Counted from the first letter of the stretch, positions 25,577 through 51,214 are shown. The stretch: 64,000 nucleotides of DNA from Candidatus Latescibacterota bacterium (GCA_965205655.1 CBDBIJ010000029.1:32001-96000); one strand, 5' to 3'. Notes: generated by a model not told the origin, from the sequence alone. Numbers and translations are program-made.

Positions 25577-26228
25577 TCAGTTTGCCCTGGTAAGGGATTC
25601 GAGCTGCTGAACGATGTCCTCAAACACGGCATCGGGAGAGGCCGTGCCGTCGACGAGGACGAGCTGCTTCAGGGAGGCAAAATGCCCGATTACTGCATCC
25701 GTTTCTTGGTGGAAGATGCTGAGGCGCTTGAGCACCACATCGTCGCGGTCATCACCCCGCTGCTGGAGCCGGGCGAGGATCTCGGGAGCGGGTGTGTCGC
25801 CGTCGAAGTTGAGGTTGTAGGTCCGGCCCGTTTCCGGATCGAGGCGGCGGCCGGAAAGACGGGTTATGACGACCTCGTCCGGTACCCGGATCAGGATTAT
25901 CCCGTCCAGAGTGAGCTCCTTTGTCGCCATGATGTCGTCGAAGGACTCCATCTGTCGCTTCGTCCTCGGGTAACCGTCCATCATGAACCCGTTCTTCGCA
26001 TCATCTCTCGAAAGACGCTCTTCGACGAGCGAGGTGACATGGTGGTCCGGCACGAGTCGGCCGGCTCCCAGGTAGTGTTTCCACGAGCTGACCGAGGTCG
26101 GTGCGGGCGGCCACGGCCTCGCGCAGCATCTCTCCGGTCGAGATGTGGGCGAGGTGATAGTGGTTCTCAAGGCGCGCCGCCTGGGTCCCCTTGCCGGAAC
26201 CAGGTGCGCCGAGCAGAATCAGATGCAA
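25577..26228 (-). CDS. adk: adenylate kinase (frameshifted near 26080)
   Basis: [34 protein letters not shown]. Confidence 0.92.
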
Positions 26229-26445: not shown

Positions 26446-27589
26446 ATGATTGTGAGCCCCACTTTCCTCACCCTGACCGCGGCGCTCCTGCTGGCGGTCC
26501 CGGCCTGGGCCCAGCTCATCGAGCGTCTCGTCGACATAGAGCCACTCAGCTACGTGGCCTACCGTGCCCTTTCCCGGATCGAGGTCGACGGGCGTCTCGA
26601 CGAACCCTCGTGGCAGCGGGTTCCGTGGACGGGGGAGTTCATCGACATAGAAGGGGCCGACGAAGCGCCCGCACCGCCTTTGCGCACGCGCGCGAAAATG
26701 ATCTGGGACGACGACTATTTCTATGTCGCCGCCGACATCGAGGAACCCCAGCTGTGGGGCTTCGGTGACCGAACGCGACGATTTCATTTACCACGACAAC
26801 GATTTCGAGGTCTTCATCGATCCCGATGGGGACACGCACGAATACTACGAATACGAGATCAACGCCTTCGGCACATCCTGGGATCTGTTCCTCGTCAAGC
26901 CGTATCGGGACGGCGGTCCCTTCATGAGCGCCTGGGACATTAAGGGTATGAAAAAGGCGGTTCAGGTGTGGGGCACCGTCAACGATCCCAGGGATGAGGA
27001 CGAGGGCTGGACCGTCGAGCTCGCTTTTCCGTGGTCGGTTCTCAAGGAGTGCGCCCACCGGCCGGCTCCCCCCAGGGACGGCGACCAGTGGCGCGTCAAT
27101 CTGATACGCGTCCAGTGGCCGCTGGAGTCCGAACAGGACCTCGAAGGCTACGCCAAGATCGACGGAGCGAAAGCGGCGCTCTGGGTGTGGTCACCCCAGG
27201 GGTTGATGGATATGCATTATCCCGAGCAATGGGGGTTCGTGCAGTTCTTGAGCCAGCGTTCAGGGAGTGCTCGAGTGAGCTTCGAACCGCCACCCGAGCG
27301 GGAGGCGCGGCGGTTGCTGCGCGAAATCTACTACCGTCAGCGCCAATTTCATCAACGCACTGGAGCCTACGCCGACAGCCTGGCCGAGCTCGGGATCGGT
27401 CATCGCATTCTCAGGGATTTCCTGTGGCCGCCCGAGATGCAGGCGACAGACCACATGTTCGAAGCATCGCTCGAGGAGGTCGTTGACCTGAATGAGGACG
27501 GCAAAATCAGCCGCTGGTTGATCCGCCACGACTCGAAAGCGTGGAAGGAGGAGGCAGGGGGACGCCGACCACAGGGCACGGACCAGTAG
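26446..27589 (+). CDS. secreted carbohydrate-binding family 9-like protein (frameshift near 26760)
   Basis: DG.LDE..W, WDDDY.Y, DNDFEVFIDPDGD, W.VE.A.PW, MHYPE.WG. Confidence 0.85.
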
Positions 27590-27594
27590 GACGA

Positions 27595-29508
27595 TCAAGC
27601 GCCGGCCGGTTCAGGCTCGGCGGCGGCCCGACCCCTGCGGGCGTGGAGAATGACCATGAGCGACGAAACGTCGGCCGGCGAGACCCCGGAGATCCTCGAT
27701 GCCTGGCCCAGGGTTCGCGGCCTCACAGCCCTCAGTTTCTGGCGCGCCTCTGTGGACAGCTGGCCAGCCTCGGCGTCGTAGTCGAAGTCATGTGGCAGGG
27801 CCAGCGACTCCAATCGTTTCAGCTTCTCGACCATCGTCCCCTGGCGCTCGATGTAGCCGGCGTATTTGATCTCCGCCTCAAGATGCTCGGCGGCGTCCGC
27901 GGAGACAGCGATCGCCGGCGGTGAGAGCTGCGCCACATCCCCATAGCTCAACTCGGGCCTTCTGAGCAGGTCGACGAGCAATGCGGACTCTTTGAGGGGC
28001 GCTGTGCCGCGGCGGCGCAGCAGCTCATTCGTGCGCTCGCCGGCGCTGACGCGGGCGGCACTGAGTCGGCTGAGCTCCGCATCCACCGCCCTCTTCTTGG
28101 CGCCGAACGCCGTCCACATCTCGTCATCCACGAGCCCGAAGCGGCGACCCTGCTCCATGAGTCGAAAGTCGGCATTGTCTTCCCGAAGCAGGAGTCGAAA
28201 CTCCGCCCTCGAAGTGAAAATTCGGTAGGGCTCCTCGGTGCCCTTCGTCACCAGATCGTCGATGAGGACGCCGATGTAGGCCTGCGACCGGTCGAGCACA
28301 AAGGGCTCCTCACCGCGGGCCTTGAGCGCGGCGTTGATCCCGGCCATCAAACCCTGCGATCCAGCCTCTTCGTAACCGGTGGTGCCGTTGATTTGGCCGG
28401 CGAAGAACAGGCTGGCGACCCTCTTCGTCTCCAGCCATGAATACAGCTGCGTCGGCGGTGCGAAATCATACTCCACGGCATACGCGGCCCGCATGATCTC
28501 GGCTCGCTCGAGGCCGGGGATGGTGCGCAGGATGGTGAGTTGCACCTCCTCGGGCAGGCTCATCGACAGCCCGTTGATGTAAAACTCGAGGGTGCGCACG
28601 CCCTCCGGTTCCACGAAAATCTGATGGCGATCCCGCTCGCCGAACTTCACCACTTTGTCCTCGATCGAGGGACAGTAGCGCGGCCCGATGCCCTCGATCC
28701 GACCGCTATACATGGCGGAGCGTGACAGGTTGTCGCGTATGAGCTCGTGGGTGCGCTCGTTCGTATAGGTGATCCAGCAGGGAAGCTGTGGCAGCACAGG
28801 CGCTTCCATCTTGTACGAGAATAGCCGCGGCGGTTCGTCGCCGCGCTGCTCTTCGAGGCGGTCGAAGGCGATGGTCCTGCCGTTGACCCGCGGCGGGGTG
28901 CCGGTTTTCAGTCGGCCGATTTCGAAACCTATCCCCGCCAGCCCGGCAGCGGCTTTGTCGGCGGCGCCCTCGCCGGCTCGTCCCGCCACGTACGAGAAAT
29001 CCCCCACGTGGACCTTGCCGCGCAAGAAGGTTCCGGTTGTGAGAACGACTGCCCGGCCGCCGTAGCAGGTCCCGCCCTTGACCGCCACACCCGTGACGCG
29101 GCCGCTTTCGACGATGAGCTGTTCCATGAGCCCCTGGCGCAGGTCGAGGTGCTCCTGCTGCTCGCAGACGTACTTCAGCTCGAATTGGTAGGTCTTCTTG
29201 TCGCACTGCGCCCGCGTCGCTCGCACCGCCGGGCCTTTGCTCGTATTGAGGCGCCGGAACTGAATGCCGCTGCGATCGGTGTTGAGCGCCATCTGCCCAC
29301 CGAGGGCGTCGATCTCCTTCACCATATGACCCTTGCCGATGCCGCCGATGGCGGGGTTGCAGGACATCTGGCCAATGGTGTCGAGATTCATGGTGAGCAG
29401 CAGGGTCTCGGCACCCATGCGGGCGGCTGCGAGGGCGGCCTCGGTGCCGGCGTGACCGCCACCGACGACGATGACGTCATACGACTTGTGATAGGGGGTA
29501 GTGGACAT
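27595..29508 (-). CDS. mnmG: tRNA uridine-5-carboxymethylaminomethyl modification enzyme MnmG/GidA
   Basis: [48 protein letters not shown]; alternative GTG start at 29532. Confidence 0.97.
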
Positions 29509-29512
29509 GCTC

Positions 29513-29788
29513 TCAGGTACTTTCACCGCCACGCCTGTCGAATTTCTCCTCGAGCTCTCGCACCAGCGTGTCGAGAAGCTCCTGAGGCTCGCCGTCGCGT
29601 TCGAGTTTGTCGGTCCAGCGCCACTGGTCGAGGTAGTCGTCCGAGCCCTCGAGGCCCTCCTCCATGGCGACCCGGTCGATCTCCAGTTGAAACTTGCCGG
29701 GCATGGGTTTCGAGAGCGGCCTGCGGCCGTCGAAGACGCGAACCTGCGCGGGGATTTCCCTCCAGTAGAGGATCTGGTACTCGGCCAT
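29513..29788 (-). CDS. 'Virulence factor' (Virulence_fact) family small protein, typical of corrinoid/folate gene clusters
   Basis: [11 protein letters not shown]...FQ..ID..AM..G...SDDYL.QW. Confidence 0.75.
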
Positions 29789-29790
29789 GA

Positions 29791-30801
29791 TCAGTTCGTT
29801 CCGGTTGTGTCTGCGGCGATCGCGTCGCGAAAGGAACGGATGTGTTCCGGCCTCGTTCCACAGCAACCGCCGATGACGGAAGCCCCAGCGCCGACCAGGT
29901 CGGGTACGAGGGCAGCCATCTCCTCCGGAGACTGATCGTACACCGTGAGCTGACGCTTGTCGAGGCGCGGCATGCCGGCGTTCGGATACGCCATCAGGAA
30001 CTTGCCGGAAACCCCCCTCTCATCGAGAGCCTGTTTGAGTTGCTCGATGCCGCTCACGGCGTACGGCATGCCGGTGTGTTCCGGCCGGCGTTGCTCGGCG
30101 CCGCAGTTCAGGCCGAGGATGTGAACGTCGTCAACCAGGTTATCACCCTGAGAAAATTCGCCAGAGGACAGAATGTCGATCATGTCAGCAGCCGAGTGAC
30201 CCCAGTCGGTGCGGTAGACGATTTCGCCGGTGGCGCGATCTGCGGTGAACTTGTAGGTCAGGTTGAGGGCTATGGGGACGTCGAACTGACGCGCCACATC
30301 GACGGCGAGGGCCGCTTCTTTGGCGGAGAACATGGTTTCGAGGCAGAGCAGGTCGACGCCGCCATCCACCAGGATAGCGGCGACCCGCTCGTGTGCCCGC
30401 CGTGCCTTCTCGTTGGCAATGCCGAATTCGGTATCGCCGCTGTCGGCCTCGATGGCCCCCGGCGACGGTCCGAGGGAACCGGCGATGTAGACTTCACGCT
30501 CGCTACGCGCACACGCGGCCCGAGCTCGCTCGACGGCCAGAGCGACAATGTGCTCCACTTCGTCACCTTCCTTGCCGGCCATCTCGAGATGGAGCGGTGA
30601 GGCGACGAAGGTGTTCGTCTGCACGATGTCGGCGCCCGCCTCGATATAGTCATGCGTGGCCCCGACGACCACATCGCCGTGGGACTCGTTGGCCAACGAG
30701 CTGTTGGCCAGCTCCACGCCCCGGGCGAAGAGCTCGCTGCCGAACCCGCCGTCGTAGAGCATCGGCTCTCCCGAGGCCAGTCTTTCGAGAAAGGGTTTCA
30801 C
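29791..30801 (-). CDS. stand-alone homocysteine S-methyltransferase domain (split MetH/BHMT-like)
   Basis: DGG.G.EL, AGAD...TNTF, GLNC, PNAG.P, GGCCGT.PEHI. Confidence 0.9.
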   Translation of the reverse strand: MKPFLERLASGEPMLYDGGFGSELFARGVELANSSLANESHGDVVVGATHDYIEAGADIVQTNTFVASPLHLEMAGKEGDEVEHIVALAVERARAACARSEREVYIAGSLGPSPGAIEADSGDTEFGIANEKARRAHERVAAILVDGGVDLLCLETMFSAKEAALAVDVARQFDVPIALNLTYKFTADRATGEIVYRTDWGHSAADMIDILSSGEFSQGDNLVDDVHILGLNCGAEQRRPEHTGMPYAVSGIEQLKQALDERGVSGKFLMAYPNAGMPRLDKRQLTVYDQSPEEMAALVPDLVGAGASVIGGCCGTRPEHIRSFRDAIAADTTGTN

Positions 30802-31901
30802 TTCGCAGTCGGTTCAGCTCGGGCTTTGTTCTTTTTCCTGCGACGGGGTTGTGGCCCATAGTCGCCGAGCTCGCCCTGGCGCCAGGCGCCTATGTAGTTG
30901 GCGCAGTGCTCGTCCCTGCCCATGAGCACATCTTCGGCCAGCTCATACGGACGCGACTGGCGGTCGAGCGCAAAGACTTCATCCGGCCGGCTGGTCACCG
31001 GGTCGATGATACCGCTATTGGCGCCGGCCTCAACGGCCAGAATCATGAAGACGTCATTGATCATCTTGCGGCTGGGGATTCCGAAAGAGACGTTGCTCAT
31101 GCCGCCGCTGATATGGATGGCCGGGCCGTATTTCGCTCTGAGCTGTCGAATGGCATCGAAAGCGTGGAGCCCGAATTGGCTGTCGACGGAGATGGGGAAG
31201 TAGAGGGGATCGACGAACACGTCCTCCAGGGCGATCCCCTTCTCCAGGGCCGTGTCGATGACGCTTGAGGCGTTGTCGATGCGCTCCTCCGCGCTCTGGG
31301 GCATGCCGCTGTCGCCGGAAGCGGTGACGACGACGCGGGCGTCGTTCGAGACCGCCAGATCGAGCACATCGAGACGCTCGAGGGATGCCGAGTTGAGGAG
31401 TGGACGGCCCCTGCCTCCATCGACGGTCGCTTCGATACCCACCCGAAGTACATCGGCATTCGACGAGTCGACGGAAACGGGAACATCCGTCATCTCCTGA
31501 ACGATTTTCACGAGCCAGATCATGGCCGTCTCCTGATCCTTGGGCTTCAAGGAGATCTCGTCCACGTTCAGGTCGAGAAAATCGGCGCCAGCCTGCTCCT
31601 GCCGTTGCACCTGGCGGCGGAGGTAGGCCATTCCCTCCGCGCTCGCTGCTCCGTCCTCCGACATGGCCGCCTGGATGGCGATCTTCATGTGCTTCACCCG
31701 GCCTTCTTCGTAGTCCTGCGTTTTCTTGAACTCTTCTGGGATGGGGAGGAAGCGCGGCTCTCCGTCGGTCGATCTGTAGCGAATGGCATCGGTGCCATCG
31801 TCGGTCGTGGTGACCAGTTTGCCGCGGCGCATGACTACGCGAGTGGTGTGGATGTTTTCACCGATGATGACGAAATCGATATCGGGGGCCCGCAGTTTCA
31901 T
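30798..31901 (-). CDS. pterin-binding methyltetrahydrofolate:corrinoid methyltransferase (MeTr/AcsE-like)
   Basis: IIGENI, AGAD.LD.N, SVDS, NS, DPL, G.SNVSFG.P.R. Confidence 0.88.
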   Translation of the reverse strand: MKLRAPDIDFVIIGENIHTTRVVMRRGKLVTTTDDGTDAIRYRSTDGEPRFLPIPEEFKKTQDYEEGRVKHMKIAIQAAMSEDGAASAEGMAYLRRQVQRQEQAGADFLDLNVDEISLKPKDQETAMIWLVKIVQEMTDVPVSVDSSNADVLRVGIEATVDGGRGRPLLNSASLERLDVLDLAVSNDARVVVTASGDSGMPQSAEERIDNASSVIDTALEKGIALEDVFVDPLYFPISVDSQFGLHAFDAIRQLRAKYGPAIHISGGMSNVSFGIPSRKMINDVFMILAVEAGANSGIIDPVTSRPDEVFALDRQSRPYELAEDVLMGRDEHCANYIGAWRQGELGDYGPQPRRRKKNKARAEPTAK

Positions 31902-31902
31902 C

Positions 31903-33633
31903 CTATGGCGCTACTTTCTGGCGCCCGGCTTCCTCGGTGCCCTGTGGTGGGTCGGTGTCCCGAGCGGGAGTCGGCTCTTTCGCAGGGGCAGAATCCTTCT
32001 CCGTTGTTTTCGCGCCGCCGCAAACGCCATCGAGTCCATCGGCGCTGTGGGCGTGATGGTCCCGGTCCAAGAAGGCGTTGCCCCAGGCGCTCGTACCCTT
32101 GAGGGCGCCGTCGCGAAATACGACCGGGCGGTCGAGCATCTGCTCCTCTTCACCGTACGCCTTGAGTCGATCATAGGCCAGTGCCCAGATGCAGTCTTTC
32201 TCGCCGACTTCGCACTTGCCTTCCCTGGTGCCTCCGCATGGACCGTTGCGCTGGTTCTTGACGCACTGGGACTCGGGACACAGAAAGGCGATGTCCGGAA
32301 GGGAGCAGTCGCCGCAGTCGCGGCAGTCAAAGGCCGGCATCTTCAATGCCTGTTCGACGGCATGCATGGTCTTTCGCACCCCAGATCCGGCGTTGTCGGC
32401 CGCTTCGTACAGCTTGACGCCGATCGCGTGGGCGACGTGACCCGGTTCGAACACCCTGTCGTGAAGTCTGCGATTGAGCTTGTAGGAGAAGGGGACACGG
32501 CGGCGTAGAGCTCGCCGCTCCTTCGGGTTCCTCGAGTCGAGGTAGCGCTGGTCGATGCAGGTCGAGCTGAGGCCGGTGGTCGGGTCCGGCTCAAAAAAAT
32601 AGAACTCGTCGGGCAGGTCGTAGGCGAACTCGCCGGCGAACTGCTTCCAGTCGTCGTCGGAGAAACTGTCCGTCCGCTCGAGAATGCGCTCGTAGTCCTC
32701 GTACTGCAGATGCCCCCCGAGGTAGGCGCCGCGATATCCCAAGCCCTTCGCAACGGCACACTGCTTGGCGGCGAATTCGAGAAAGAAGGCCTTGCCCTTG
32801 TCGCGATCGCCGCCCCGTTTTTCGGTGAGCGCGAAGAGCTCGTCTGTGACTACGACCCCGGGAATATTGCCGCCGTGAAAATACCGCGCCGCCGGCGCGC
32901 TCAGCACGTAGACGTTGGCGATGGTGGGGATGTCGTCCATTCCTTTCAACGACATGTATTTGAGGAGCTCATCCTGCTTGCGCGAGTTGTAGCCGATCTG
33001 ATTGATGACGAAAGCCGCCCCCGCCTCGACCTTCTTGGCCAATTTGAAATACTGGGGCATGACTTCGCGCTCGTGGCGCTTGAAATTGTTGACCACCGTC
33101 CCAAGGAAGAAGCTTGTCCGCTTCATTCTGGAGATGCGGCCCTTCGGCGTCTTTGCCTGCAAACCGGCGTTCATGTCCGACAGCATCTTGAGCAGGCCAG
33201 CGGAATCGATGTCGAACACACCGGACGCGGTTCCCTGAAACCCGGCGATGGGGTAGTCGCCGGAGAGAGTCAGAATGTTGTCAAACCCCTCGCTGGCCAG
33301 CTGCCAGGCCTTGCTCTGCAGGCCGTTGCGGTTCCAGTCCTTGCACGACAGGTGAATGATGACGTCCTGGCCACGCGACAGCAGGTCGGTTCCCAGCGTG
33401 TCGGCGCTGAGGACGGCGTTGCCGCCGGGATTGTCGGTGATGCTCAGCCCGTGAACGCCCGGGTGCTGCGCCAAAGCCCTCGCCACCTGCATGACGCGGC
33501 GGCCGCTGCGCTCCGTGATGAGGCCGCGCGAGTTGACGAGCTCCACCATGTTGACGAAGGTGTCTGTTCGCTCGAGGAGATGGCGCAAGGTGCGCTTCTG
33601 CCAGGCGCTGAAAGGGGTGGTTTTCTCACTCAT
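31903..33633 (-). CDS. metF: methylenetetrahydrofolate reductase fused to a MetV-like Cys-rich C-terminal domain
   Basis: ITDNP.G, HLSCKD.NR, L.GD, K..AGA.F...Q; C-terminal CRDCGDC...CPESQC.K..RNGPCGG...CEV...CIW. Confidence 0.85.
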   Translation of the reverse strand: MSEKTTPFSAWQKRTLRHLLERTDTFVNMVELVNSRGLITERSGRRVMQVARALAQHPGVHGLSITDNPGGNAVLSADTLGTDLLSRGQDVIIHLSCKDWNRNGLQSKAWQLASEGFDNILTLSGDYPIAGFQGTASGVFDIDSAGLLKMLSDMNAGLQAKTPKGRISRMKRTSFFLGTVVNNFKRHEREVMPQYFKLAKKVEAGAAFVINQIGYNSRKQDELLKYMSLKGMDDIPTIANVYVLSAPAARYFHGGNIPGVVVTDELFALTEKRGGDRDKGKAFFLEFAAKQCAVAKGLGYRGAYLGGHLQYEDYERILERTDSFSDDDWKQFAGEFAYDLPDEFYFFEPDPTTGLSSTCIDQRYLDSRNPKERRALRRRVPFSYKLNRRLHDRVFEPGHVAHAIGVKLYEAADNAGSGVRKTMHAVEQALKMPAFDCRDCGDCSLPDIAFLCPESQCVKNQRNGPCGGTREGKCEVGEKDCIWALAYDRLKAYGEEEQMLDRPVVFRDGALKGTSAWGNAFLDRDHHAHSADGLDGVCGGAKTTEKDSAPAKEPTPARDTDPPQGTEEAGRQKVAP

Positions 33634-35330
33634 GATCCTGAGACGGCTGCGCTTTCGCGAGCGGCCGTGGCCGCAGCGGCAGCTGCTGTTGGATCCGGAG
33701 GGATCTGCCGCGGCATGGGTTTGAACTGACAGCCTTCGACGAAGACCTCGAAGAAGTCAGGCGTCGTTTCGAGCTCGATGTGGTCAATCTCCTTTACTGC
33801 CTCCTCGATGGCGCTGCGAGCTGTGCGGCTCATGAGAGCCTCCCGGGCCCCCTGCACGGCAGCATTCCCGACCTTTTCGATCCGATCCTCCGGTACCGGG
33901 GCGAGAAAGCCGATATCGATGGCATTGCGAATGTCGATGTAGTTGGCGAATCCACCGGCCAGGTAGAGCTTGGAGACATCAACGGGGTCGACGCCGAAGG
34001 CGCGCAGGGCGATGTACTGGCCGCAGAAGTTGGCCGCTTTGGCCTGGGCGAGATTGCTGGCATCCTCTCTGGAAAAGGTGATGCCGTGCTCGGGAATGAG
34101 CATCATCTCGAACTGCTTCTTGTCCTCGAACACGCCCTTCTCCGTCATCCGTCTCCGCCCTCGCAGCTCGGCGAGCAAGTCGATCAGGCCTGAGCCGCAG
34201 ATCCCCTGCGGTTTCACGTCGCCGATAGTGGCGTACTCGATGTCGCCGGAAGCGGCGATGCGTATCGATTCGATAGCGCCTTCGTAGCCGGGCATGCCGT
34301 AGCGCACCGCGCCGCCGCCTTCGAAAGCGGGGCCCGCCGGACAGGAAGCGGCGAGAATGCGGCCCGCCCCGGCGATGACGACTTCAGTGTTTGTACCGAC
34401 GTCGACGAGCATTTTTATTTCGTCGGAGTCGGCGGACATGTCGAGGGCAAGGAGATCGGCCGCCGTGTCGGCGCCCACATGGCTGGCGATGAGCGGCAAT
34501 CCGTAGAGCCTCGTCTTGATATTCGCCCGCAAGCCCAGACGTCGGGCGAGCTGCACGAGTGCGGTCGTATCGCGCTCACCGGCGCGGTACTCGTGCTCGA
34601 CGAGTGACTTGTACGGTCTCTGGCCGATGCTCTGCACGTCGAGCTTGAAAAGGATGTCCCGCATGGTGGAGTTGCCGGCGACGACGATTTCGTAGATCTC
34701 CTGCCGTTGAAATCCGTAGTGGCTGGCCAGATCCAGGATTTCGTGACTGATCGCATTCGTCACCGCCTTGCGCAACTCACCACGATGCTCGCTCCCGTCG
34801 TACGAAATGCGATTCATGACATCACTGCCGCCGAAGCGCTGCGGGTTTTCGAAGGAGCTCACGTGCACGCATTCGCCCGTCTCCAGGTCGAGGAGTTCCA
34901 TCACCACCGTCGTCGTGCCCAGATCGATGGCGAGGCCGAGCATGTGGCCGCGGTAGCCGTCGATGACCTCTCCGTCGTAGAGCACGTCGTCATCCCGCCT
35001 GGTCACGAATGGGTCCAGCGCGACCTCCTTCTCCTGGGTTAGAGAGAGAATTTTGGGCTTTCGTCGCAGAGGGGTGAATTCGATATCGACATCGTCTCGA
35101 TCGATGACGGCCTGACAGGCGAGGCGATAGCTATCCCGCAGGAACGACTCTGCATCGGTCGGTGGCCGAAGGGCCTCCATGCCCCTGGTGATGTCTACGA
35201 TGCACTCGTGACAGTTGCCGGTGCGATAGCAGGAAGTTGGCACCTGAACCGCGAGGTCGTCGGCATAGTCGAAGATCGTTTTGCCGGGCGATAGCGGGCG
35301 CTCTTCACCGTCGTGGGAAATCGTCGCCAT
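33630..35330 (-). CDS. ASKHA-domain ATP-dependent corrinoid reductive activator (RACE) with N-terminal 2Fe-2S domain
   Basis: C...G.C..C...RLACQA; DLGTTT; G.DV..RI; D.GTN.E; AGPAFEG; GICGSG. Confidence 0.92.
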   Translation of the reverse strand: MATISHDGEERPLSPGKTIFDYADDLAVQVPTSCYRTGNCHECIVDITRGMEALRPPTDAESFLRDSYRLACQAVIDRDDVDIEFTPLRRKPKILSLTQEKEVALDPFVTRRDDDVLYDGEVIDGYRGHMLGLAIDLGTTTVVMELLDLETGECVHVSSFENPQRFGGSDVMNRISYDGSEHRGELRKAVTNAISHEILDLASHYGFQRQEIYEIVVAGNSTMRDILFKLDVQSIGQRPYKSLVEHEYRAGERDTTALVQLARRLGLRANIKTRLYGLPLIASHVGADTAADLLALDMSADSDEIKMLVDVGTNTEVVIAGAGRILAASCPAGPAFEGGGAVRYGMPGYEGAIESIRIAASGDIEYATIGDVKPQGICGSGLIDLLAELRGRRRMTEKGVFEDKKQFEMMLIPEHGITFSREDASNLAQAKAANFCGQYIALRAFGVDPVDVSKLYLAGGFANYIDIRNAIDIGFLAPVPEDRIEKVGNAAVQGAREALMSRTARSAIEEAVKEIDHIELETTPDFFEVFVEGCQFKPMPRQIPPDPTAAAAAATAARESAAVSGS

Positions 35331-35334
35331 CGTC

Positions 35335-35664
35335 TCAGTCGGTGGAATCGTGGTCAGTACGCCGGCGGGCCGCCTGATTCTTGATCTTTTCGATCTTGGC
35401 CTTCGCCTTGTCGTAGGATTGAGGGTCCGACTCCCAGGCCTCGCGATAATCGAAGCGGCCGTCGTGGCCGCACATCAACTCGTCACCCCCTGAAGTGGGG
35501 GGTTGCTGGTTGTGGCAGTGAAACTTCGCCGTGCACTGGTCGAAACGGTTCCGGTACGGGCAGCGGCTGTTGGCCTGCTCGTCGGCATGGGTGACCATAC
35601 CGGCGAACAGCTCTGTAATCCGGTCGAGTCTCTTCTGGAGTTCCTCTTTGGCGATCTCCGCCAT
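35335..35664 (-). CDS. small Cys-rich hypothetical protein
   Basis: RCPYRN...CTA.F.C.NQ...C..D; 3-4 nt gaps to its neighbours in the operon. Confidence 0.75.
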   Translation of the reverse strand: MAEIAKEELQKRLDRITELFAGMVTHADEQANSRCPYRNRFDQCTAKFHCHNQQPPTSGGDELMCGHDGRFDYREAWESDPQSYDKAKAKIEKIKNQAARRRTDHDSTD

Positions 35665-35667
35665 CCG

Positions 35668-36417
35668 TTAAGCGCCGACGCCGGCGAGCTGCTTGGCGAG
35701 AGCGACGCAGGCCAGGGCGTCCTTGCCGTAGCCGTCGGCCCCCATGTCGTCGGCGAACTCCTGGGTCACCGGGGCGCCGCCGACCATGATCTGCACATCA
35801 TCCCTGAGATCGGCATCGATGAACGCCTCGATGGTCTTGCCCATGTTCGGCATCGTCGTCGTCAGCAATGCCGACATGCCCATGAGCGGCGCGCTGTGCT
35901 CCTCCACGGCCTCCATGAACTCATCCTCCGAGGTGTCGACACCGAGGTCGACGACCTCGAAGCCGGCGCCGTTCAGCATCATGATGCACAGGTTCTTGCC
36001 GATGTCGTGGAGGTCTCCTTTCACGGTTCCCATGACCACGGTGCTGAGCTTCTCGACGCCGGATGCCGACAGGATGGGCTCGATATGGGCCATGCCCGCC
36101 TTCATGGCGCGGGCGCAGGCGAGGACTTCCGGTACGAAGATGAAGTTCTCGCGGAACTTGATACCCACGATTCCCATTCCGGCGATGAGACCGTCGTCCA
36201 TGATCTCGAGCGCTTCCACGCCTTCCTCGAGGGCCTGCCTGGTCAACTTATCCACCGTGCCGTGATCGCCTTCGATGAGGGCGGCGGCGGCGTTCTGCAT
36301 CAGAGGGCGCGCCCTGGCGAAGATTTCGATGCTGCGCTCGATCTCCTCGGGGCGCTCGACGTATTCCTCGATCTCGTCGCGAATCGTCTCGTTCTGAATG
36401 TCCGATAGCTCAGCCAT
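35668..36417 (-). CDS. corrinoid (B12-binding) methyl-carrier protein
   Basis: Cap domain GM..VG..F....FVPE; GDLHDIGKN...SALLTTT...GGAP. Confidence 0.95.
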   Translation of the reverse strand: MAELSDIQNETIRDEIEEYVERPEEIERSIEIFARARPLMQNAAAALIEGDHGTVDKLTRQALEEGVEALEIMDDGLIAGMGIVGIKFRENFIFVPEVLACARAMKAGMAHIEPILSASGVEKLSTVVMGTVKGDLHDIGKNLCIMMLNGAGFEVVDLGVDTSEDEFMEAVEEHSAPLMGMSALLTTTMPNMGKTIEAFIDADLRDDVQIMVGGAPVTQEFADDMGADGYGKDALACVALAKQLAGVGA

Positions 36418-36419
36418 GT

Positions 36420-37469
36420 TCAGTTCTTCGATACGTGCTCGGCGTGCCAGTCGCGCACCGCCCTGGGGATCTCTTTCAGGTTATCGATGGAAGTCTGCAG
36501 GGGAATGGCGCACTCCGGACCCACGAGATCGACGCCGGCATCGAGGTTCTTGTAGACTTCCTGTCTCACCGTCTCCGGTCCTTTCGAGAACAGGGTCTCC
36601 GGGTTGTTGATGTTCCCCACAAGGGAGATGCGATTCTTGACGATGTCCATCGACTCTGCCGGCTCGTTCTTCGAATCGTAGTGGAATGCCGCCATGCCGG
36701 TCTGGGCGATGTATTCCATGCGATCGACGGTGCGGCCGCAGATGTGCAGAATCAGGGGAATAGGTATGCGCTCGCAGAATTCGATGTGCATTTCGCGCAG
36801 GTAGCGCTCGTAGTACTCGCCGCTCACCAGATCGCCGGTGGCGTGGTCGGGCAAGGTGAGGCCGTCGGCGCCAGCCTCGATCTGGGCGACCCCGAAATCG
36901 ATCGTCACCTTCTTCAGCTTTTCGAGAATCCGCTTCGTGTGATCGGGATCGTCCAGCGACAGTAGCAGAAAAGGCTCGACTCCGAAGGTGTGATAGGCCA
37001 GCGACCAGGGGCCCATGGTCTTGCCGATGATGGCCACTTCGTCGCCGTATTCCCTTTTGAGAATCTCGATCGCTCTCAGGACACAGCTCGTGTCCTGGTG
37101 CGTCAGCAGGTCGGGAGGGATGACGATATCGTCGGCGGTTTCGTAGATCGGCTCCCGCATTTTCACGGTGGGCCAGTTATCCTTCTGCTCCCACTGAATC
37201 TTGCATCCCAGGGCGGATGACTCCTGGATGATGGTGAAGACAGGCATGATGGAATCGAAACCGAGCTCGGTGTATCCGGTGGCGGCGAGTCGAGCCATGA
37301 GTTCGGGATCACGGTTGGCGTCGGGGAAGGGGGCATCGACGAGATCCATCAGCTCCACAGTGGCAACCGAGGTGGGGTTGCACACCGGCGTTCTGTCCAC
37401 GGCCTCTCGCTTGAAGGCAGCCAGGACCCTCTGGCGTCCACTCATTGCTTTCGGTGTCCGATCGCTCAT
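36420..37469 (-). CDS. MtaA/CmuA-family (URO-D fold) corrinoid methyltransferase
   Basis: DR.PV, E..ALGC, GP.SLA, Zn motif LHICG...PEC, GNI. Confidence 0.88.
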   Translation of the reverse strand: MSDRTPKAMSGRQRVLAAFKREAVDRTPVCNPTSVATVELMDLVDAPFPDANRDPELMARLAATGYTELGFDSIMPVFTIIQESSALGCKIQWEQKDNWPTVKMREPIYETADDIVIPPDLLTHQDTSCVLRAIEILKREYGDEVAIIGKTMGPWSLAYHTFGVEPFLLLSLDDPDHTKRILEKLKKVTIDFGVAQIEAGADGLTLPDHATGDLVSGEYYERYLREMHIEFCERIPIPLILHICGRTVDRMEYIAQTGMAAFHYDSKNEPAESMDIVKNRISLVGNINNPETLFSKGPETVRQEVYKNLDAGVDLVGPECAIPLQTSIDNLKEIPRAVRDWHAEHVSKN

Positions 37470-37478
37470 AGCTCTTCC

Positions 37479-38114
37479 TCACCTCTGTTGGCTCGGGGCG
37501 GCGAGAACGCCGCCGCCCGATTGGTCCTGCTCTCTCATGGCGGCACGCACGTTCGGCGCGCGCACGAGCAACAACCCCGCGAGTGCGTGATGGTCACAGG
37601 CGCAGTCGAAGGCGACGATGTTGTCGGCCTCCGACTCCAGCGTCATTTCGCCCAGTTTGACGAGGCCGCCGGAGATGGCGGAGACTCGCCGACTGTTGTC
37701 GTCGTCGTCCCCTTCAGCGGTGACCTGATATCTTCCATCCCCCGTGGCGACGACGGTGACGTCCCTGTCCGCCTTCTTATCGAAGATGGTCAGCGGCCTG
37801 GGCTCGAGCGTGCCGCCGGTTACCAGCTTGCAGGCTTCGAGGAACACCCTCTTGCACGCCTTGAAATGCCCGGATCCGCAGGGGAAGCGGAGCGTGTGCT
37901 CGCTCTCTGTGCGCTCCATACCGCCGAGCACCGTCATCGCCTCAGCGACAAAATCGATGCGGACCGCAGCGTTATCCTTCGAGCTGTAGGTATGAACGAG
38001 AAATTCGGAGCCGCCCTCCCCATCCTGCTCGTAGAGAGCGATGGATATGTCGCCAAAGTGCGAATCGATGGGCAGGAGCTCGATCCGCCTGCCGAGATCA
38101 AGGGTCAAGCCCAT
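37479..38114 (-). CDS. hypothetical protein, first gene of the corrinoid operon
   Basis: Strong RBS GGAGAGGGAG; duplicated F.C...H motifs (FPCGSGH, FDCACDH). Confidence 0.75.
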   Translation of the reverse strand: MGLTLDLGRRIELLPIDSHFGDISIALYEQDGEGGSEFLVHTYSSKDNAAVRIDFVAEAMTVLGGMERTESEHTLRFPCGSGHFKACKRVFLEACKLVTGGTLEPRPLTIFDKKADRDVTVVATGDGRYQVTAEGDDDDNSRRVSAISGGLVKLGEMTLESEADNIVAFDCACDHHALAGLLLVRAPNVRAAMREQDQSGGGVLAAPSQQR

Positions 38115-38181
38115 ATCCAACTCCCTCTCCCTCTGCGAGTAAAATCGCTTGACACAGCGTGGCCGGTCCGTTATGAATGGT

Positions 38182-38210
38182 AATATGACTGATGGTCAGA
38201 CCTTTGGCAA
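38182..38210 (-). promoter_or_regulatory. sigma70 promoter of the corrinoid operon with a FadR/GntR-type operator in the spacer
   Basis: Minus strand TTGCCA, 17 nt, CATATT; spacer contains GGTCTGACC (TGGTCAGACCT on +, 38193-38203). Confidence 0.6.
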
Positions 38211-38979
38211 GGAAAAAGCGCTTCCGCCCCCAGAGGCCGTCGACGAGCTTCGGCCGATCCCTCGTAGCTCGGTGAGCGACGCCATCGTTGACCAACTCAT
38301 CGACCTCATCACCCGGGAAGTGCTCAAGCCAGGCGATCGTCTGCCGTCAGAGCGCGAACTCTGCAAACGATTCGGCGTCGGGCGCACATCGGTCCGGGAA
38401 GCTCTGCGTTCACTCGCCGTCATGGGGATCCTCGACGGCAGGGTGGGGGACGGGACCTTCGTGTCCGACAACCGCCGATACCTCGAGCGGACTCTCCAAT
38501 GGGGACTGCTCCTAGACCCCAAGAAGGTCGACGATCTCATAGAGACCCGTCTCATGCTCGAGTCGAACACGGCCTGTTGGGCAGCCGAACGAGCCGTCGA
38601 AGAGAATCTCACGCAGATGCGTGGATCCCTCGATGGCATGGAACGATCGATCGGTGAACCCGAGCGCTTTCTGGAATTCGATCTCCAGTTCCATCTCGAG
38701 ATCGCGCTCGCGAGTCACAACTCCATCCTCCACAATCTCGTGAGCATGATCCGGGGCTATTTGCAGGAGTGGATCGAGGGAAGCCTGAAAACGCCCTCTT
38801 CCGCAGCGACGGAGCGGGCGCGCCTCTCCGTGTCACAGCACCGTTCCATCGTCGCCGCCATCGCTGATCGAGATGGCGATCTGGCGCGTCGGGAGATGAG
38901 CGGCCACATCCTCTCGAGCAGTCGCGACCTCCGGGATCACATCGGGGTCGATTCGGATAATGATTCGGATAATGGTTGA
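38185..38979 (+). CDS. FadR/GntR family transcriptional regulator
   Basis: LKPGDRLPSERELC..FGVGR.SVREAL; FCD domain D..FH; start codon uncertain. Confidence 0.93.
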   Translation: MTDGQTFGKEKALPPPEAVDELRPIPRSSVSDAIVDQLIDLITREVLKPGDRLPSERELCKRFGVGRTSVREALRSLAVMGILDGRVGDGTFVSDNRRYLERTLQWGLLLDPKKVDDLIETRLMLESNTACWAAERAVEENLTQMRGSLDGMERSIGEPERFLEFDLQFHLEIALASHNSILHNLVSMIRGYLQEWIEGSLKTPSSAATERARLSVSQHRSIVAAIADRDGDLARREMSGHILSSSRDLRDHIGVDSDNDSDNG

Positions 38980-38984
38980 GTGAG

Positions 38985-40167
38985 CTAGTGTATTGTCGTA
39001 TAAATAACTTGTACTAGTACAGTTGTGTGGTTAAGTTTCATCCAGACCTATTCCACAAACAAGGAACGGAGGAAACTCATGCCACGCGGACGCTTTCTTC
39101 CACCTCTCGAAATGACGGGGCAAACTCGGCAGCAATTGGAATCAATGGCCAAATCTCGATCCCTGCCGCACGGTTTGGTGCGACGCGCCGAGATCGTGTT
39201 GCTGGCCGCCGAGGGATGGCCCAACAAGGCCATCGGCGAAGCTGTGGGGCTGTCACAAGTGACCGTCGGCAAGTGGCGTCGTCGCTTCGTGGAAAACGGC
39301 CTCAACGGGTTGTACGACGAGCTGCGACCCGGTGCGCCCCGATCGATCTCGGACGAACAAGTGGCCGAGGTGGTATACAAGACACTGAAGACCAAGCCGG
39401 AGGACAAAACCCAGTGGACGGTGCGCTCCATGGGCGAGGAGACCGGCCTGACCAAGGACGCGGTCCATCGCATCTGGCGCACATTCGGCTTACAGCCGCA
39501 CCGGACCCAGAATTTCAAGCTGTCCACTGATCCTTTCTTCGTGGATAAGGTGCGCGATGTTGTGGGCTTGTATCTCAACCCGCCCGACCATGCCGTCGTC
39601 CTGTGCGTTGACGAGAAGAGCCAAGTGCAGGCTCTGGAGCGCAGTCAGCCGTTGCTGCCGCTGGGCCTGGGCTACGCGGAGGGCGTCACCCACGACTACA
39701 AGCGACACGGCACCACAACGCTGTTTGCCGCTCTGGATGTGGCCACCGGTGAAGTCCTGACTCAGTGCAAGCCTCGTCATCGCCATCAGGAGTTTTTGCA
39801 GTTCCTACGCCATATCGACGCGAACGTGCCTGCGGATCTGGACGTTCACTTGATCGTCGACAACTACGGCACCCACAAGTACGCCAGCGTCAAGAAGTGG
39901 TTGGCCAGCCGGCCCCGATTCCACCTCCACTTTACTCCGACCTACGCCTCGTGGCTCAACCAGGTCGAGATCTGGTTCAACATCATCACGCGGCGAGCCA
40001 TCCGGCGTGGCTCATTCCGCAAGGTCAAAGAGCTCATTCAGAGGATCGAGCGCTACACCGACAAATGGAACGCCAACGCCCATCCCTTTGTGTGGACGGC
40101 CACGGCCGACTCGATCCTTGCCAAGGTCAAACGACTATGTCAATGTATTTCTGCGACGGAACACTAG
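38985..40167 (+). mobile_element. IS630-family insertion sequence, copy 1
   Basis: Ends CTAGTGTATTGTCGTA / TGCGACGGAACACTAG; inserted at CTAG (TA duplication). Confidence 0.93.
39079..40167 (+). CDS. IS630 transposase
   Basis: [29 protein letters not shown]. Confidence 0.95.
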
Positions 40168-46503: not shown

Positions 46504-48869
46504 CGCTGCCCGGCAGGGGCGGCGTCCGCCGCATGAGGACGAGGATGACGGCGATGAGGACGAGGGACGCTGCACCCAGCGATGGGAAAACGGCGTCGAG
46601 GCCGAGCCTGACCTCAATGACGCCGAGAATCTGTACCGCGGCGGCGCCCACACCAAAGGTGAGAACGAACTTGGCACCGAAGGCGGCGTGGTGCAGCCTC
46701 TTCGGAGTGAGCCGGGCGACGAGAGTGTTCTCGATCGGCTGCATGCCGAACAGGAAAAAGAAGTAAGCCACCGCGAGCAGAACGAGCCCTGTCTCGGCGG
46801 CCAGAGACATGAGGAAGGTGAACAAGGCCACCAAAACCTAGTGTTCCGTCGCAGAAATACAGTGACATATTCGTTTGACCTTGGCAAGGATCGAGTCGGC
46901 CGTGGCCGTCCACCCAAAGGGATGGGCGTTGGCGTTCCATTTGTCGGTGTAGCGCTCGATCCTCTGAATGAGCTCTTTGACCTTGCGGAATGAGCCACGC
47001 CGGATGGCTCGCCGCGTGATGATGTTGAACCAGATCTCGACCTGGTTGAGCCACGAGGCGTAGGTCGGAGTAAAGTGGAGGTGGAATCGGGGCCGGCTGG
47101 CCAACCACTTCTTGACGCTGGCGTACTTGTGGGTGCCGTAGTTGTCGACGATCAAGTGAACGTCCAGATCCGCAGGCACGTTCGCGTCGATATGGCGTAG
47201 GAACTGCAAAAACTCCTGATGGCGATGACGAGGCTTGCACTGAGTCAGGACTTCACCGGTGGCCACATCCAGAGCGGCAAACAGCGTTGTGGTGCCGTGT
47301 CGCTTGTAGTCGTGGGTGACGCCCTCCGCGTAGCCCAGGCCCAGCGGCAGCAACGGCTGACTGCGCTCCAGAGCCTGCACTTGGCTCTTCTCGTCAACGC
47401 ACAGGACGACGGCATGGTCGGGCGGGTTGAGATACAAGCCCACAACATCGCGTACCTTATCCACGAAGAAAGGATCAGTGGACAGCTTGAAATTCTGGGT
47501 CCGGTGCGGCTGTAAGCCGAATGTGCGCCAGATGCGATGGACCGCGTCCTTGGTCAGGCCGGTCTCCTCGCCCATGGAGCGCACCGTCCACTGGGTTTTG
47601 TCCTCCGGCTTGGTCTTCAGTGTCTTGTATACCACCTCGGCCACTTGTTCGTCCGAGATCGATCGGGGCGCACCGGGTCGCAGCTCGTCGTACAACCCGT
47701 TGAGGCCGTTTTCCACGAAGCGACGACGCCACTTGCCGACGGTCACTTGTGACAGCCCCACAGCTTCGCCGATGGCCTTGTTGGGCCATCCCTCGGCGGC
47801 CAGCAACACGATCTCGGCGCGTCGCACCAAACCGTGCGGCAGGGATCGAGATTTGGCCATTGATTCCAATTGCTGCCGAGTTTGCCCCGTCATTTCGAGA
47901 GGTGGAAGAAAGCGTCCGCGTGGCATGAGTTTCCTCCGTTCCTTGTTTGTGGAATAGGTCTGGATGAAACTTAACCACACAACTGTACTAGTACAAGTTA
48001 TTTGTACGACAATACACTAGGTACCCGCGCTTCAACTCGAAGCGCTCGGCCACACGTCCACCGGTGTACTGCCCGAATATCCCGACGGCGAAGACGAGTG
48101 AGGCGATGGCGGTGGCGGCCACGTTCTCGGAAACGCCGCCAGCCCAGGCGGCCAGCTGCTCGAAGATGCGGTGGCTCTCCACTTCGAAGTATGCCGGCAG
48201 TATGACGGTGGCGCCGCGGTAGACGAGTCCCCCCAACATCATGGCCACCAGCAAAATGAGGAAGGGACCGAGCATACCTCCGTCCCGCTCGGCGCCATCG
48301 TCGGCGGCGTCCCCATCCTTTTCCCGCGGCGAGAGCAGGACAGACAGGGCTCCCACAACATTGAGGCCGGCCACGGCGACGTAGGCCATCTCCGGACCCC
48401 ACAGGTAGTTGAGGATGCCGGCCAGCAGCGGGGCCACGGCGATGCCGAGGTTGCCGAACATGCCGTTGTAGCCGAGGCCGATACTGACGCGTTCCAGGCG
48501 TCTGGAGATCCAGCCGAGCCCGGCCGGATGGTAGATGCCGGAGAACAGACCCAGAGCTGCCAGGGCCAGAGAAAGCCTGGTGGGATCATCGATCCACAGG
48601 GCGGCGGCCACACAGCTGAGGGCGGCGCCGGTGTGATACAGGAAGAGGAGGCACGGGGCCCCCCACCGGTCAGTCAGCATCCCCCACGGCAGGGCGGTGA
48701 CACCGAAGAGGAGGTACATCCAGAAGGATATCGCCAGCACGGCTGCCATCGATAGCTCGAGACGGGCGGCCAGCGGCAGAACGAGCGCCGGGAACACGAG
48801 CATGTTGACGTGGCTGAGAAAGTGTCCGAAACAGGTGACGACGAGAATGCGGCGGTCACTGGAACGCAT
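46481..48869 (-). pseudogene. MFS transporter interrupted by IS630
   Basis: 5' part 48869-48017 (GH...H, G.L.DRWG, IYHP.G) and 3' part 46837-46481 (MQPIENTLVA) flank the IS; an extra frameshift lies at the junction. Confidence 0.85.
46838..48020 (-). mobile_element. IS630-family insertion sequence, copy 2 (transposase 46838-47926)
   Basis: Nearly identical to copy 1, inverted; CTAG at both ends. Confidence 0.93.

Positions 48870-51137: not shown

Positions 51138-51214
<77 letters not shown>

Follow-up and report, generated by a model that had tools for sequence, protein, structure and literature searches.

A cobalamin operon of uncultured bacteria that may couple a two-protein methyl-donor arm to a split methionine synthase

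Which compound supplies the methyl group to a nine-gene cobalamin (B12) operon of a Candidatus Latescibacterota bacterium, and where is that methyl group delivered? The operon lies within a 64,000-nucleotide stretch of DNA (GCA_965205655.1 CBDBIJ010000029.1:32001-96000; the window, whose coordinates are used throughout), and an earlier note, made from the sequence alone, proposed that an uncharacterised donor methylates its corrinoid protein, which then feeds either methionine synthesis or the oxidation of methyl-tetrahydrofolate (methyl-THF). Following up this proposal, we see an even chance that the first two gene products, g1 and g2, demethylate a small methyl thioether and pass the methyl group to the corrinoid protein and, through a shared hub of enzymes, to methionine. 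The genes, domains, motifs and co-occurrence patterns on which this reading draws were observed directly, and the genes run from 38114 down to 29513 as follows (aa, amino acids).

g1, 37479..38114, minus strand: 211 aa, no Pfam or NCBIfam match, predicted binding partner of g2.
g2, 36420..37469, minus strand: 349 aa, MtaA-like zinc methyltransferase of the UroD superfamily (URO-D), with His242-Cys244-Cys320.
g3, 35668..36417, minus strand: 249 aa, corrinoid protein with cap and B12-binding domains (PF02607, PF02310) and a DLHDIG motif.
g4, 35335..35664, minus strand: 109 aa, no Pfam or NCBIfam match, four invariant cysteines (35, 44, 50 and 65) in a 40-sequence alignment.
g5, 33630..35330, minus strand: 566 aa, RACE/RACo ATP-dependent corrinoid activase with a 2Fe-2S domain (Fer2, PF14574, PF17651, PF00111).
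g6, 31903..33633, minus strand: 576 aa, fusion of MTHFR (MetF) with DUF5981.
g7, 30798..31901, minus strand: 367 aa, pterin-binding methyl-THF:corrinoid methyltransferase (MeTr, MtgD-like), PF00809.
g8, 29791..30801, minus strand: 336 aa, stand-alone homocysteine methyltransferase (MtgE-like), PF02574, with LNC and GGCC zinc motifs.
g9, 29513..29791, minus strand: 92 aa, PF13769 ("Virulence_fact", a Pfam label only), accessory, found in 28 of 80 loci.

Open reading frame calls together with Pfam and NCBIfam profile scans, the source of all our domain calls, bear out the earlier description of nine co-directional, tightly packed genes with these domains: successive intergenic gaps are 9, 2, 3, 4, -4, 1, -4 and -1 nt. 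Because the gene order is repeated in many genomes, and because near-identical contigs occur in sequencing runs of other studies, the cluster is a real B12 operon and not a chance arrangement. Those contigs span a large part of the locus, and one runs across 37003-39013; among the contigs listed, none covers the whole locus, and no RNA run is listed for it. The synteny survey that the earlier note had suggested showed g1 directly upstream of g2 in all 80 top loci, with g3 in 50, g4 in 48, g5 in 48, g6 in 29, g7 in 30, g8 in 26 and g9 in 28 of the same loci within ~10 kb, some loci being cut by contig ends. The host assembly measures 4.0 Mb and is 84% complete; its closest g2 relatives make it a probable member of Latescibacterota, and every absence from the host genome given below is subject to that completeness.

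The donor arm begins with g2, which probably brings in the methyl donor, as had been proposed. It scores above the cut-offs of TIGR01463 (MtaA/CmuA; 249 bits against 235.4) and NF004889 (261 against 244) and below the equivalog cut-offs of MtaA and MtbA (243 of 400 bits and 203 of 600 bits), and its best solved relative is MtaA (4AY7, E 5.5e-50). Species-representative genomes hold at least 471 relatives, the best 80 of which are 79-85% identical across Latescibacterota, Poribacteria, Acidobacteriota and Lentisphaeria; further versions, at 63-68% identity, occur in SAR202-like and other loci. Plasmids yielded no g2 orthologue, the best match there being ~25% identical. The expectation that g2 has no characterised orthologue held in the comparisons run (CmuA is 23% identical), which did not include MecE/MecC, MtsA, MtpA or OdmB directly. 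PDB searches with both UroD queries (g2 and a second host protein described below) returned no MecC/MecE, CdmB, MtsA or MtpA chain, and whether the PDB set holds such chains is uncertain. A quick tree with CmuA, HemE and the second UroD protein was uninformative about the deep placement of g2, the outgroup branches being saturated.

The earlier note had left g1 as a hypothetical; it is instead a near-constant companion of g2. There are 1221 g1 homologues, and every organism name returned for g1 relatives is that of a metagenome-assembled genome, with no cultured carrier among them. The protein consists of two internal alpha/beta repeats (hhalign probability 97.8), each closing with F-x-C-x3-H (C79/H83 and C171/H175), and its AlphaFold model has a predicted local distance difference test score (pLDDT) of 91. 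Foldseek gave no match at E <= 0.001, the PDB profile search no notable match and the Atlas no usable one. The best VIA match, to urea carboxylase (Z 6.8, root-mean-square deviation 3.6 over 95 residues), is within the range of common arrangements. These searches establish neither a known fold nor a new one.

Of 31 genomes from the class, 27 carry g1, and the same 27 carry full-length g2; one more genome holds a g2 fragment at a contig end; the two genes are adjacent in 24 of the 27 carriers. The predicted g1-g2 complex scores 0.87, compared to 0.01 for the best of three controls; in a calibration not built with user alignments, 116 of 157 solved pairs and 2 of 215 mismatched pairs attained this mark. 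Complex runs share at least 91% of contacts, with a partner pLDDT of at least 86. As no solved relative of g1 was found, the modelled complex is unlikely to be the recall of a like complex. These results support binding of g1 to g2; the nature of the calibration and the separation of the two genes in 3 of the 27 carriers count against it. In the model, g1 docks on g2 residues 38-47, 95-99 and 323-332, which include the invariant V38-D42, K96, D97, W99, P323 and L324. Since this surface is sequence-adjacent to T33, W99 and C320, we infer that g1 caps the substrate side of g2. We found no published description of the pair, which the supplementary cluster lists of PMC10418091, PMC12478193 and PMC13222342 might include, and we regard g1-g2 as an undescribed two-protein donor arm conserved over several uncultured phyla.

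The zinc site and the pocket of g2 narrow the range of possible donors. The HxC..C motif recognised earlier is conserved, with the three ligands of H242-x-C244...C320 present in 82, 81 and 82, respectively, of the 82 sequences aligned. All six residues named for the MtaA pocket (PMC13618148) align at one constant offset on 4AY7, their g2 equivalents being T33, S34, M75, I80, W99 and P207. The swaps from MtaA to g2 are R70 to M75, Q94 to W99, Q29 to S34 and A201 to P207, alongside an invariant H209. With the arginine lost and tryptophan and methionine gained, the sequence suggests a pocket tighter and less polar than the coenzyme M site, and thus a substrate of small size and lower polarity in place of coenzyme M. 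A His-Cys-Cys site marks S/Se-methyltransferases, whereas O-demethylases swap one or both zinc cysteines for carboxylates or non-ligands (PMC10418091); g2 keeps both, unlike the UroD-type O-demethylases OdmB, VdmB, MtvB and MtoB. Because of this site, O-methyl ethers, one of the substrate classes entertained in the earlier note, are unlikely for g2.

The host genome (G000) also encodes a second UroD methyltransferase (G000 C143:5052-6932), which has an H-x-D site and no third-ligand cysteine and comes with a separate corrinoid protein that shares 61% identity with g3. A tblastn search found neither an activase nor an acceptor dedicated to this pair, and similar UroD/corrinoid pairs adjoin the hub and an HpcH-type aldolase in two loci (L102 and L103). 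The hub probably serves a second donor through such a pair; possibly that donor is an O-methyl compound, in which case the pair would act as an O-demethylase arm sharing the activase of the hub. The operon had been called self-contained, a description at odds both with this pair and with the many genomes in which the blocks of the cluster are split apart.

The remaining genes form the hub, and the chemistry that we ascribe to it is that of characterised homologues. The corrinoid protein g3 has a median identity of 81% in 50 loci; its identity to B12-binding proteins of Alphaproteobacteria is ~46%, and with NF047996 it scores 199, where the cut-off is 370. The activase g5 matches 3ZYY at E 7.8e-69. 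As g4 is joined in frame to RACE in 21 of the 51 loci having both, this second hypothetical protein of the earlier note is a detached N-terminal piece of the activase, judged from those sequences; its own model is of low confidence (predicted template modelling score 0.36), Foldseek found no match for it, and its Atlas matches are only unnamed clusters. The DUF5981 part of g6 we take to be MetV-like, and the two halves of g6 are encoded as separate genes in loci L100-L106. The MeTr g7 reaches 200 bits with NF005719, under the cut-off of 259, and the best solved match of g8 is the N-terminal module of Thermotoga maritima MetH (E 7e-25), followed by BHMT (1e-11). Genes g5 to g8 are single-copy, with no second copy elsewhere in the host genome. 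The host genome has no PF02965 MetH reactivation domain, no MttB, no MtrH and no Fhs. The domains of g3, g5, g7 and g8 and the missing PF02965 thus match the split MetH, with RACE in place of an S-adenosylmethionine (SAM) domain, that the earlier note described; its statement that no donor-side methyltransferase of the MttB/MtaB type is present stands for MttB, MtaB not having been searched genome-wide. Four short core-MetE-like (PF01717) genes occur in the host (G000 C54:27473-28546, C8:2692-3681, C45:15712-16857 and C133:4171-5155); the C45 copy adjoins an EgtD-like gene, ABC-transporter genes and selD, as judged by eye, and the C133 copy is split in two.

In the mechanism that we propose, the ATP-dependent activase g4+g5 would keep g3 as Co(I), and methylated g3 would pass its methyl group to g8, which would methylate homocysteine to methionine. 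Two inputs would converge on g3. The first would be methyl-THF, by way of MetF (g6) and MeTr (g7), forming a split methionine synthase that would substitute for the fused MetH apparently lacking in the host. The second would be a heterodimer of g1 and g2: the g2 barrel, with its Zn(His-Cys-Cys) site, would demethylate a small methyl thioether, and g1 would cap the pocket loops; candidate donors are dimethylsulfide (DMS), methanethiol or an S-methyl metabolite, the exact substrate being a guess, and we infer both the direction of transfer on the donor side and sulfur as the leaving atom. Excess methyl could return to folate through g7, with methyl-THF oxidation a secondary outlet. A cobalamin-dependent "DMS methyltransferase" has been postulated, with no enzyme assigned to it (PMC6548844). 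The narrower claim that g1 and g2 form a two-subunit enzyme of aerobic bacteria that methylates a corrinoid from dimethylsulfide (or methanethiol), the first of its type to be defined by sequence, and that g1 is a new metal-binding fold gating the active site, we consider distinctly unlikely.

Where the methyl group goes is reflected in the gene content of 47 carriers of g1 and g2, comprising 27 of the class and 20 picked from other phyla. A stand-alone homocysteine methyltransferase is present in 45 of them and a MeTr in 25; an intact MeTr was not found in the other 22. Within the class, 24 carriers have a g8 orthologue and the other 3 a divergent homocysteine methyltransferase beside g2, and an intact MeTr is present in 14. 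The carriers of other phyla have both arms in 9 cases, only the homocysteine arm in 9 (two with the divergent enzyme), only MeTr in 2 and neither in none. Fused MetH occurs in 12 of the 13 class carriers without MeTr compared to 3 of the 14 with it (Fisher p 3e-4, overstated owing to kinship: the 12 cases span four genera, with 9 in one genus). All seven of the MeTr-less Poribacteria checked carry g3-g4-g5-g8 as a separate block. In the Acidobacteriota sample, five further carriers have MeTr next to g2; each also has PF02574 genes, of no assigned subtype, at other sites. In one genome (G017:C1:1332084-1332588) the MeTr is in two pieces and a fused MetH is also present, possibly a case of decay of a dispensable arm. 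The homocysteine arm is thus constant, whereas the MeTr branch is the dispensable one, lost mostly where a fused MetH exists, and MeTr with MetF appears to serve mainly for de novo methyl supply in genomes from which MetH is missing, the host among them. Of the two outlets named in the earlier note, methionine synthesis stood, and methyl-THF oxidation receded to a dispensable branch.

Five genomes, 97-99% complete, sharpen this picture: their UroD proteins are HemE and g2 only, and they have no stand-alone MeTr. MttB is found in none of nine genomes of their family and in 1 of 13 MeTr-less relatives, and MtrH in none of four tested. As no corrinoid partners other than g2 and g8 were found in these five genomes, the methyl group must pass between the g2 substrate and homocysteine/methionine, and the gene content makes donor to methionine the simplest reading of the direction. 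The flow could also be reversed, g2 being an acceptor-side methyltransferase (MT2) like MtaA that moves methyl from methyl-THF (g7) or from methionine (g8 running backwards) to a thiol, sulfide or selenide, for detoxification or for a SAM-free S-methyl metabolite. The closest solved and profile relatives of g2 are indeed MT2 enzymes, methyl exchange of this kind is near equilibrium, and an MtaA-like protein methylates selenide, and sulfide more slowly, in vitro (PMC10418091). With neither an intact MeTr in almost half of the carriers nor another donor methyltransferase in the five near-complete genomes, however, methionine would have to be driven uphill through g8; ComA is present in only one of five genomes, and SAM-dependent thiol methylases offer a simpler route. 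We consider this reversal unlikely, if the most serious of the alternatives.

A second alternative is catabolic: a methyl halide or another CH3-X would be demethylated to methyl-THF, and oxidation of this methyl-THF would yield energy, as happens in the cmu pathway or with MtgBCD. The operon includes MeTr and MetF, the host genome encodes FolD and cytochrome c oxidase (subunit I is found in all five genomes checked, host included), MtgD of Ruegeria pomeroyi is bidirectional (PMC12478193), and two genomes carry MeTr without g8. MeTr is nevertheless the arm that was lost, its loss tracking the presence of MetH; no folD, purU or fhs was recognised by eye in the shared neighbourhood, unlike in the cmu cluster; Fhs is among the genes missing from the host; and g2 is neither close to CmuA nor fused to a corrinoid domain. 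We therefore give energy-yielding demethylation only a slim chance, the dedicated regulator of the operon also speaking in its favour. This regulator and its likely target extend the locus beyond the nine genes:

38149..38979, plus strand: GntR/FadR-family regulator (GntR + FCD), divergent from g1, true start probably near 38185.
38190..38206, plus strand: likely operator of FadR type with core GGTCWGACCA, lying within a sigma-70-like site of the minus strand (38210-38182).

A FadR-type homologue lies upstream of g1 in 29 loci, and the 300 nt preceding g1 contain GGTCWGACCA in 17 of these 29 and in none of the 52 loci without the regulator. Two more copies lie farther upstream, and a TTGTCWGACAA variant is present in six loci. 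The motif is not rare in the host genome (11 matches, ~19 expected), and it is the contrast between loci with and without the regulator that makes 38190-38206 a likely operator.

Besides the kinship noted above, several observations weigh against demethylation of a thioether to methionine. FadR-family effectors are usually carboxylates, which fit a volatile donor poorly. The host genome has no strong PF01053 (MetB/MetY-type, homocysteine-forming) gene, whereas four relatives carry two each. Two soil genomes have MeTr without a g8-type enzyme. CmuA, a methyl-halide enzyme, shares the H-x-C and later cysteine in the alignment, so that the motif leaves halides possible. No sulfur-compound transporter or catabolic gene was recognised by eye in the families common to at least 7 of the 80 loci. 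Finally, thioether-to-thiol methyl exchange is roughly isoenergetic, so that gene content cannot fix the direction of methyl flow. As to neighbouring genes in general, clustering of the 80 neighbourhoods showed by eye no conserved gene, beyond the regulator, that points to a substrate, and a homocysteine source was not found in the host genome, perhaps through incompleteness of the assembly.

The leaving atom could also be selenium, with g1-g2 demethylating methylselenol or dimethylselenide, the selenium going to selenoproteins and the methyl group to methionine; salvage of methyl-S/Se to methionine has been proposed for type 1 mlp clusters, and the His-Cys-Cys site is compatible with selenium (PMC10418091). 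SelA is above its cut-off in 27 of 27 class carriers and missing in 2 of 3 genomes without g2, and SelB is present in 19 of the 20 carriers from other phyla and in 13 of 13 carriers of the phylum sample. The background in that sample (which includes one unpublished genome, G073) is 228 of 301, however, and the Fisher p of 0.04 was obtained on close kin, so that the link between selenocysteine machinery and carriers is weak. In three loci (L082-L084), selD lies two genes upstream of a SAR202-like cassette, g9-g8-g1-g2-g3-g4-g5, with an arginine-tRNA-ligase-like gene (by eye) sitting between them; the 80 main loci contain neither selD nor selA, and no cluster gene has an in-frame TGA at a conserved cysteine. 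A selenium substrate is, in our view, very doubtful. The selD at L082:6027-7106 has an in-frame TGA, likely selenocysteine.

How much of the proposed thioether-to-methionine route is new? A three-part methionine synthase with a RamA-like activase is known from Phaeobacter inhibens (PMC5764234), and in R. pomeroyi one corrinoid protein and MeTr also serve the donor methyltransferase MtgB, with MetF2 alongside (PMC12478193). A split MetH with RACE and an extra methyl donor in an aerobe is thus an established design, and the earlier view of an uncharacterised pathway stands only for the g1-g2 donor arm. As in that system, our operon has separate homocysteine, pterin and corrinoid proteins (g8, PF02574; g7, PF00809; g3), an ATP-dependent RamA-like activase (g5) in place of the SAM domain, a MetF paralogue beside MeTr, an aerobic host and a donor-specific methyltransferase on the same corrinoid protein. 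It differs in that the donor arm is an MtaA-like zinc enzyme with a new partner instead of the MttB-family MtgB (PF06253), none of which is in the host genome; in that none of the nine genes matches DUF1638 and the activase has a four-cysteine domain; and in that the homocysteine arm is constant and MeTr lost, whereas mtgE is usually not beside mtgBCD in the roseobacter study (PMC12478193), whose main text makes no mention of MtaA or uroporphyrinogen.

With MtaA, MtbA, MtsA and MtpA of Methanosarcina, g2 shares the UroD barrel, the His-Cys-Cys zinc site and a score above the NF004889 cut-off, and MtsA and MtpA are donor-side MtaA homologues acting on DMS or methylmercaptopropionate (MMPA) (10.1101/548461). 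Unlike these coenzyme M enzymes, of which MtsA and MtpA were compared by description only, g2 falls below the MtaA/MtbA equivalog cut-offs, has an altered pocket (R70, Q94 and Q29 replaced) and a dedicated partner, and resides in an aerobic bacterial host, with ComA in one of five genomes and homocysteine, via a second enzyme, as the probable acceptor. Type 1 mlp clusters likewise combine an MtaA-like protein, a corrinoid protein and RACE outside methanogens, with the salvage role mentioned above; they require at least two MtaA-like proteins where our operon has one, have no folate methyltransferase within 20 kb where our operon includes g7, and belong to obligate anaerobes rather than to hosts bearing cytochrome c oxidase, and g1, g4 and g8 are outside their definition (PMC10418091). 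CmuA/CmuB (compared through the pJM105 copy, locus L085) shares the superfamily, the H-x-C...C motif and aerobic corrinoid chemistry tied to MetF; CmuA is, however, a distant relative that carries a corrinoid domain in the same polypeptide and has purU and folD in its cluster, and the host genome lacks the MtrH family, presumably the CmuB type. Cluster content, fusion, scores and pocket rule out the operon as a type 1 mlp cluster, a CmuA system or MtaA proper.

Around the operon, mnmG (27595-29508) has the same direction and begins 4 nt past g9, so that co-transcription is possible; it was not recognised in the gene families common to at least 7 related loci. An Rfam scan of the window at the gathering score returned no riboswitch or other family, its sole match being a tRNA at 51138-51211, and promoter and terminator counts in the window show no excess over shuffled sequence. 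Two IS630 transposases with the same N-terminal sequence, at 39025-40167 (plus strand) and 46838-47980 (minus strand), flank PhyH, GHL10-like, PhyH-HEAT and aldolase genes and may form a composite element. Given this bracketing, the dioxygenases cited in the earlier note may be recent neighbours of the operon. Overlapping frames suggest frameshifts, which would be assembly errors or mark pseudogenes, in an adenylate-kinase-like open reading frame (25577-26170), a probable secreted protein (26446-27589) and selD (G000 C45:11566-12491).

These data suggest that the roseobacter design is modular: a single corrinoid protein supplies methionine synthesis while also serving a demethylase specific to one donor, and here the same plan is reused with a donor arm of methanogen type. 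The sequence identity of this arm, 63-85% over Latescibacterota, Poribacteria, Acidobacteriota, Lentisphaeria and SAR202-like loci, points to a single substrate of wide occurrence. Were the donor DMS, methanethiol or methylselenide, the operon would represent an unrecognised sink in marine and soil sulfur or selenium cycling; on the DMS reading, sponge symbionts, SAR202 and soil Acidobacteriota would convert a climate-active gas directly to methionine, with no folate involved. Otherwise, it would still add a route of methionine salvage not yet characterised, along with a new protein family.

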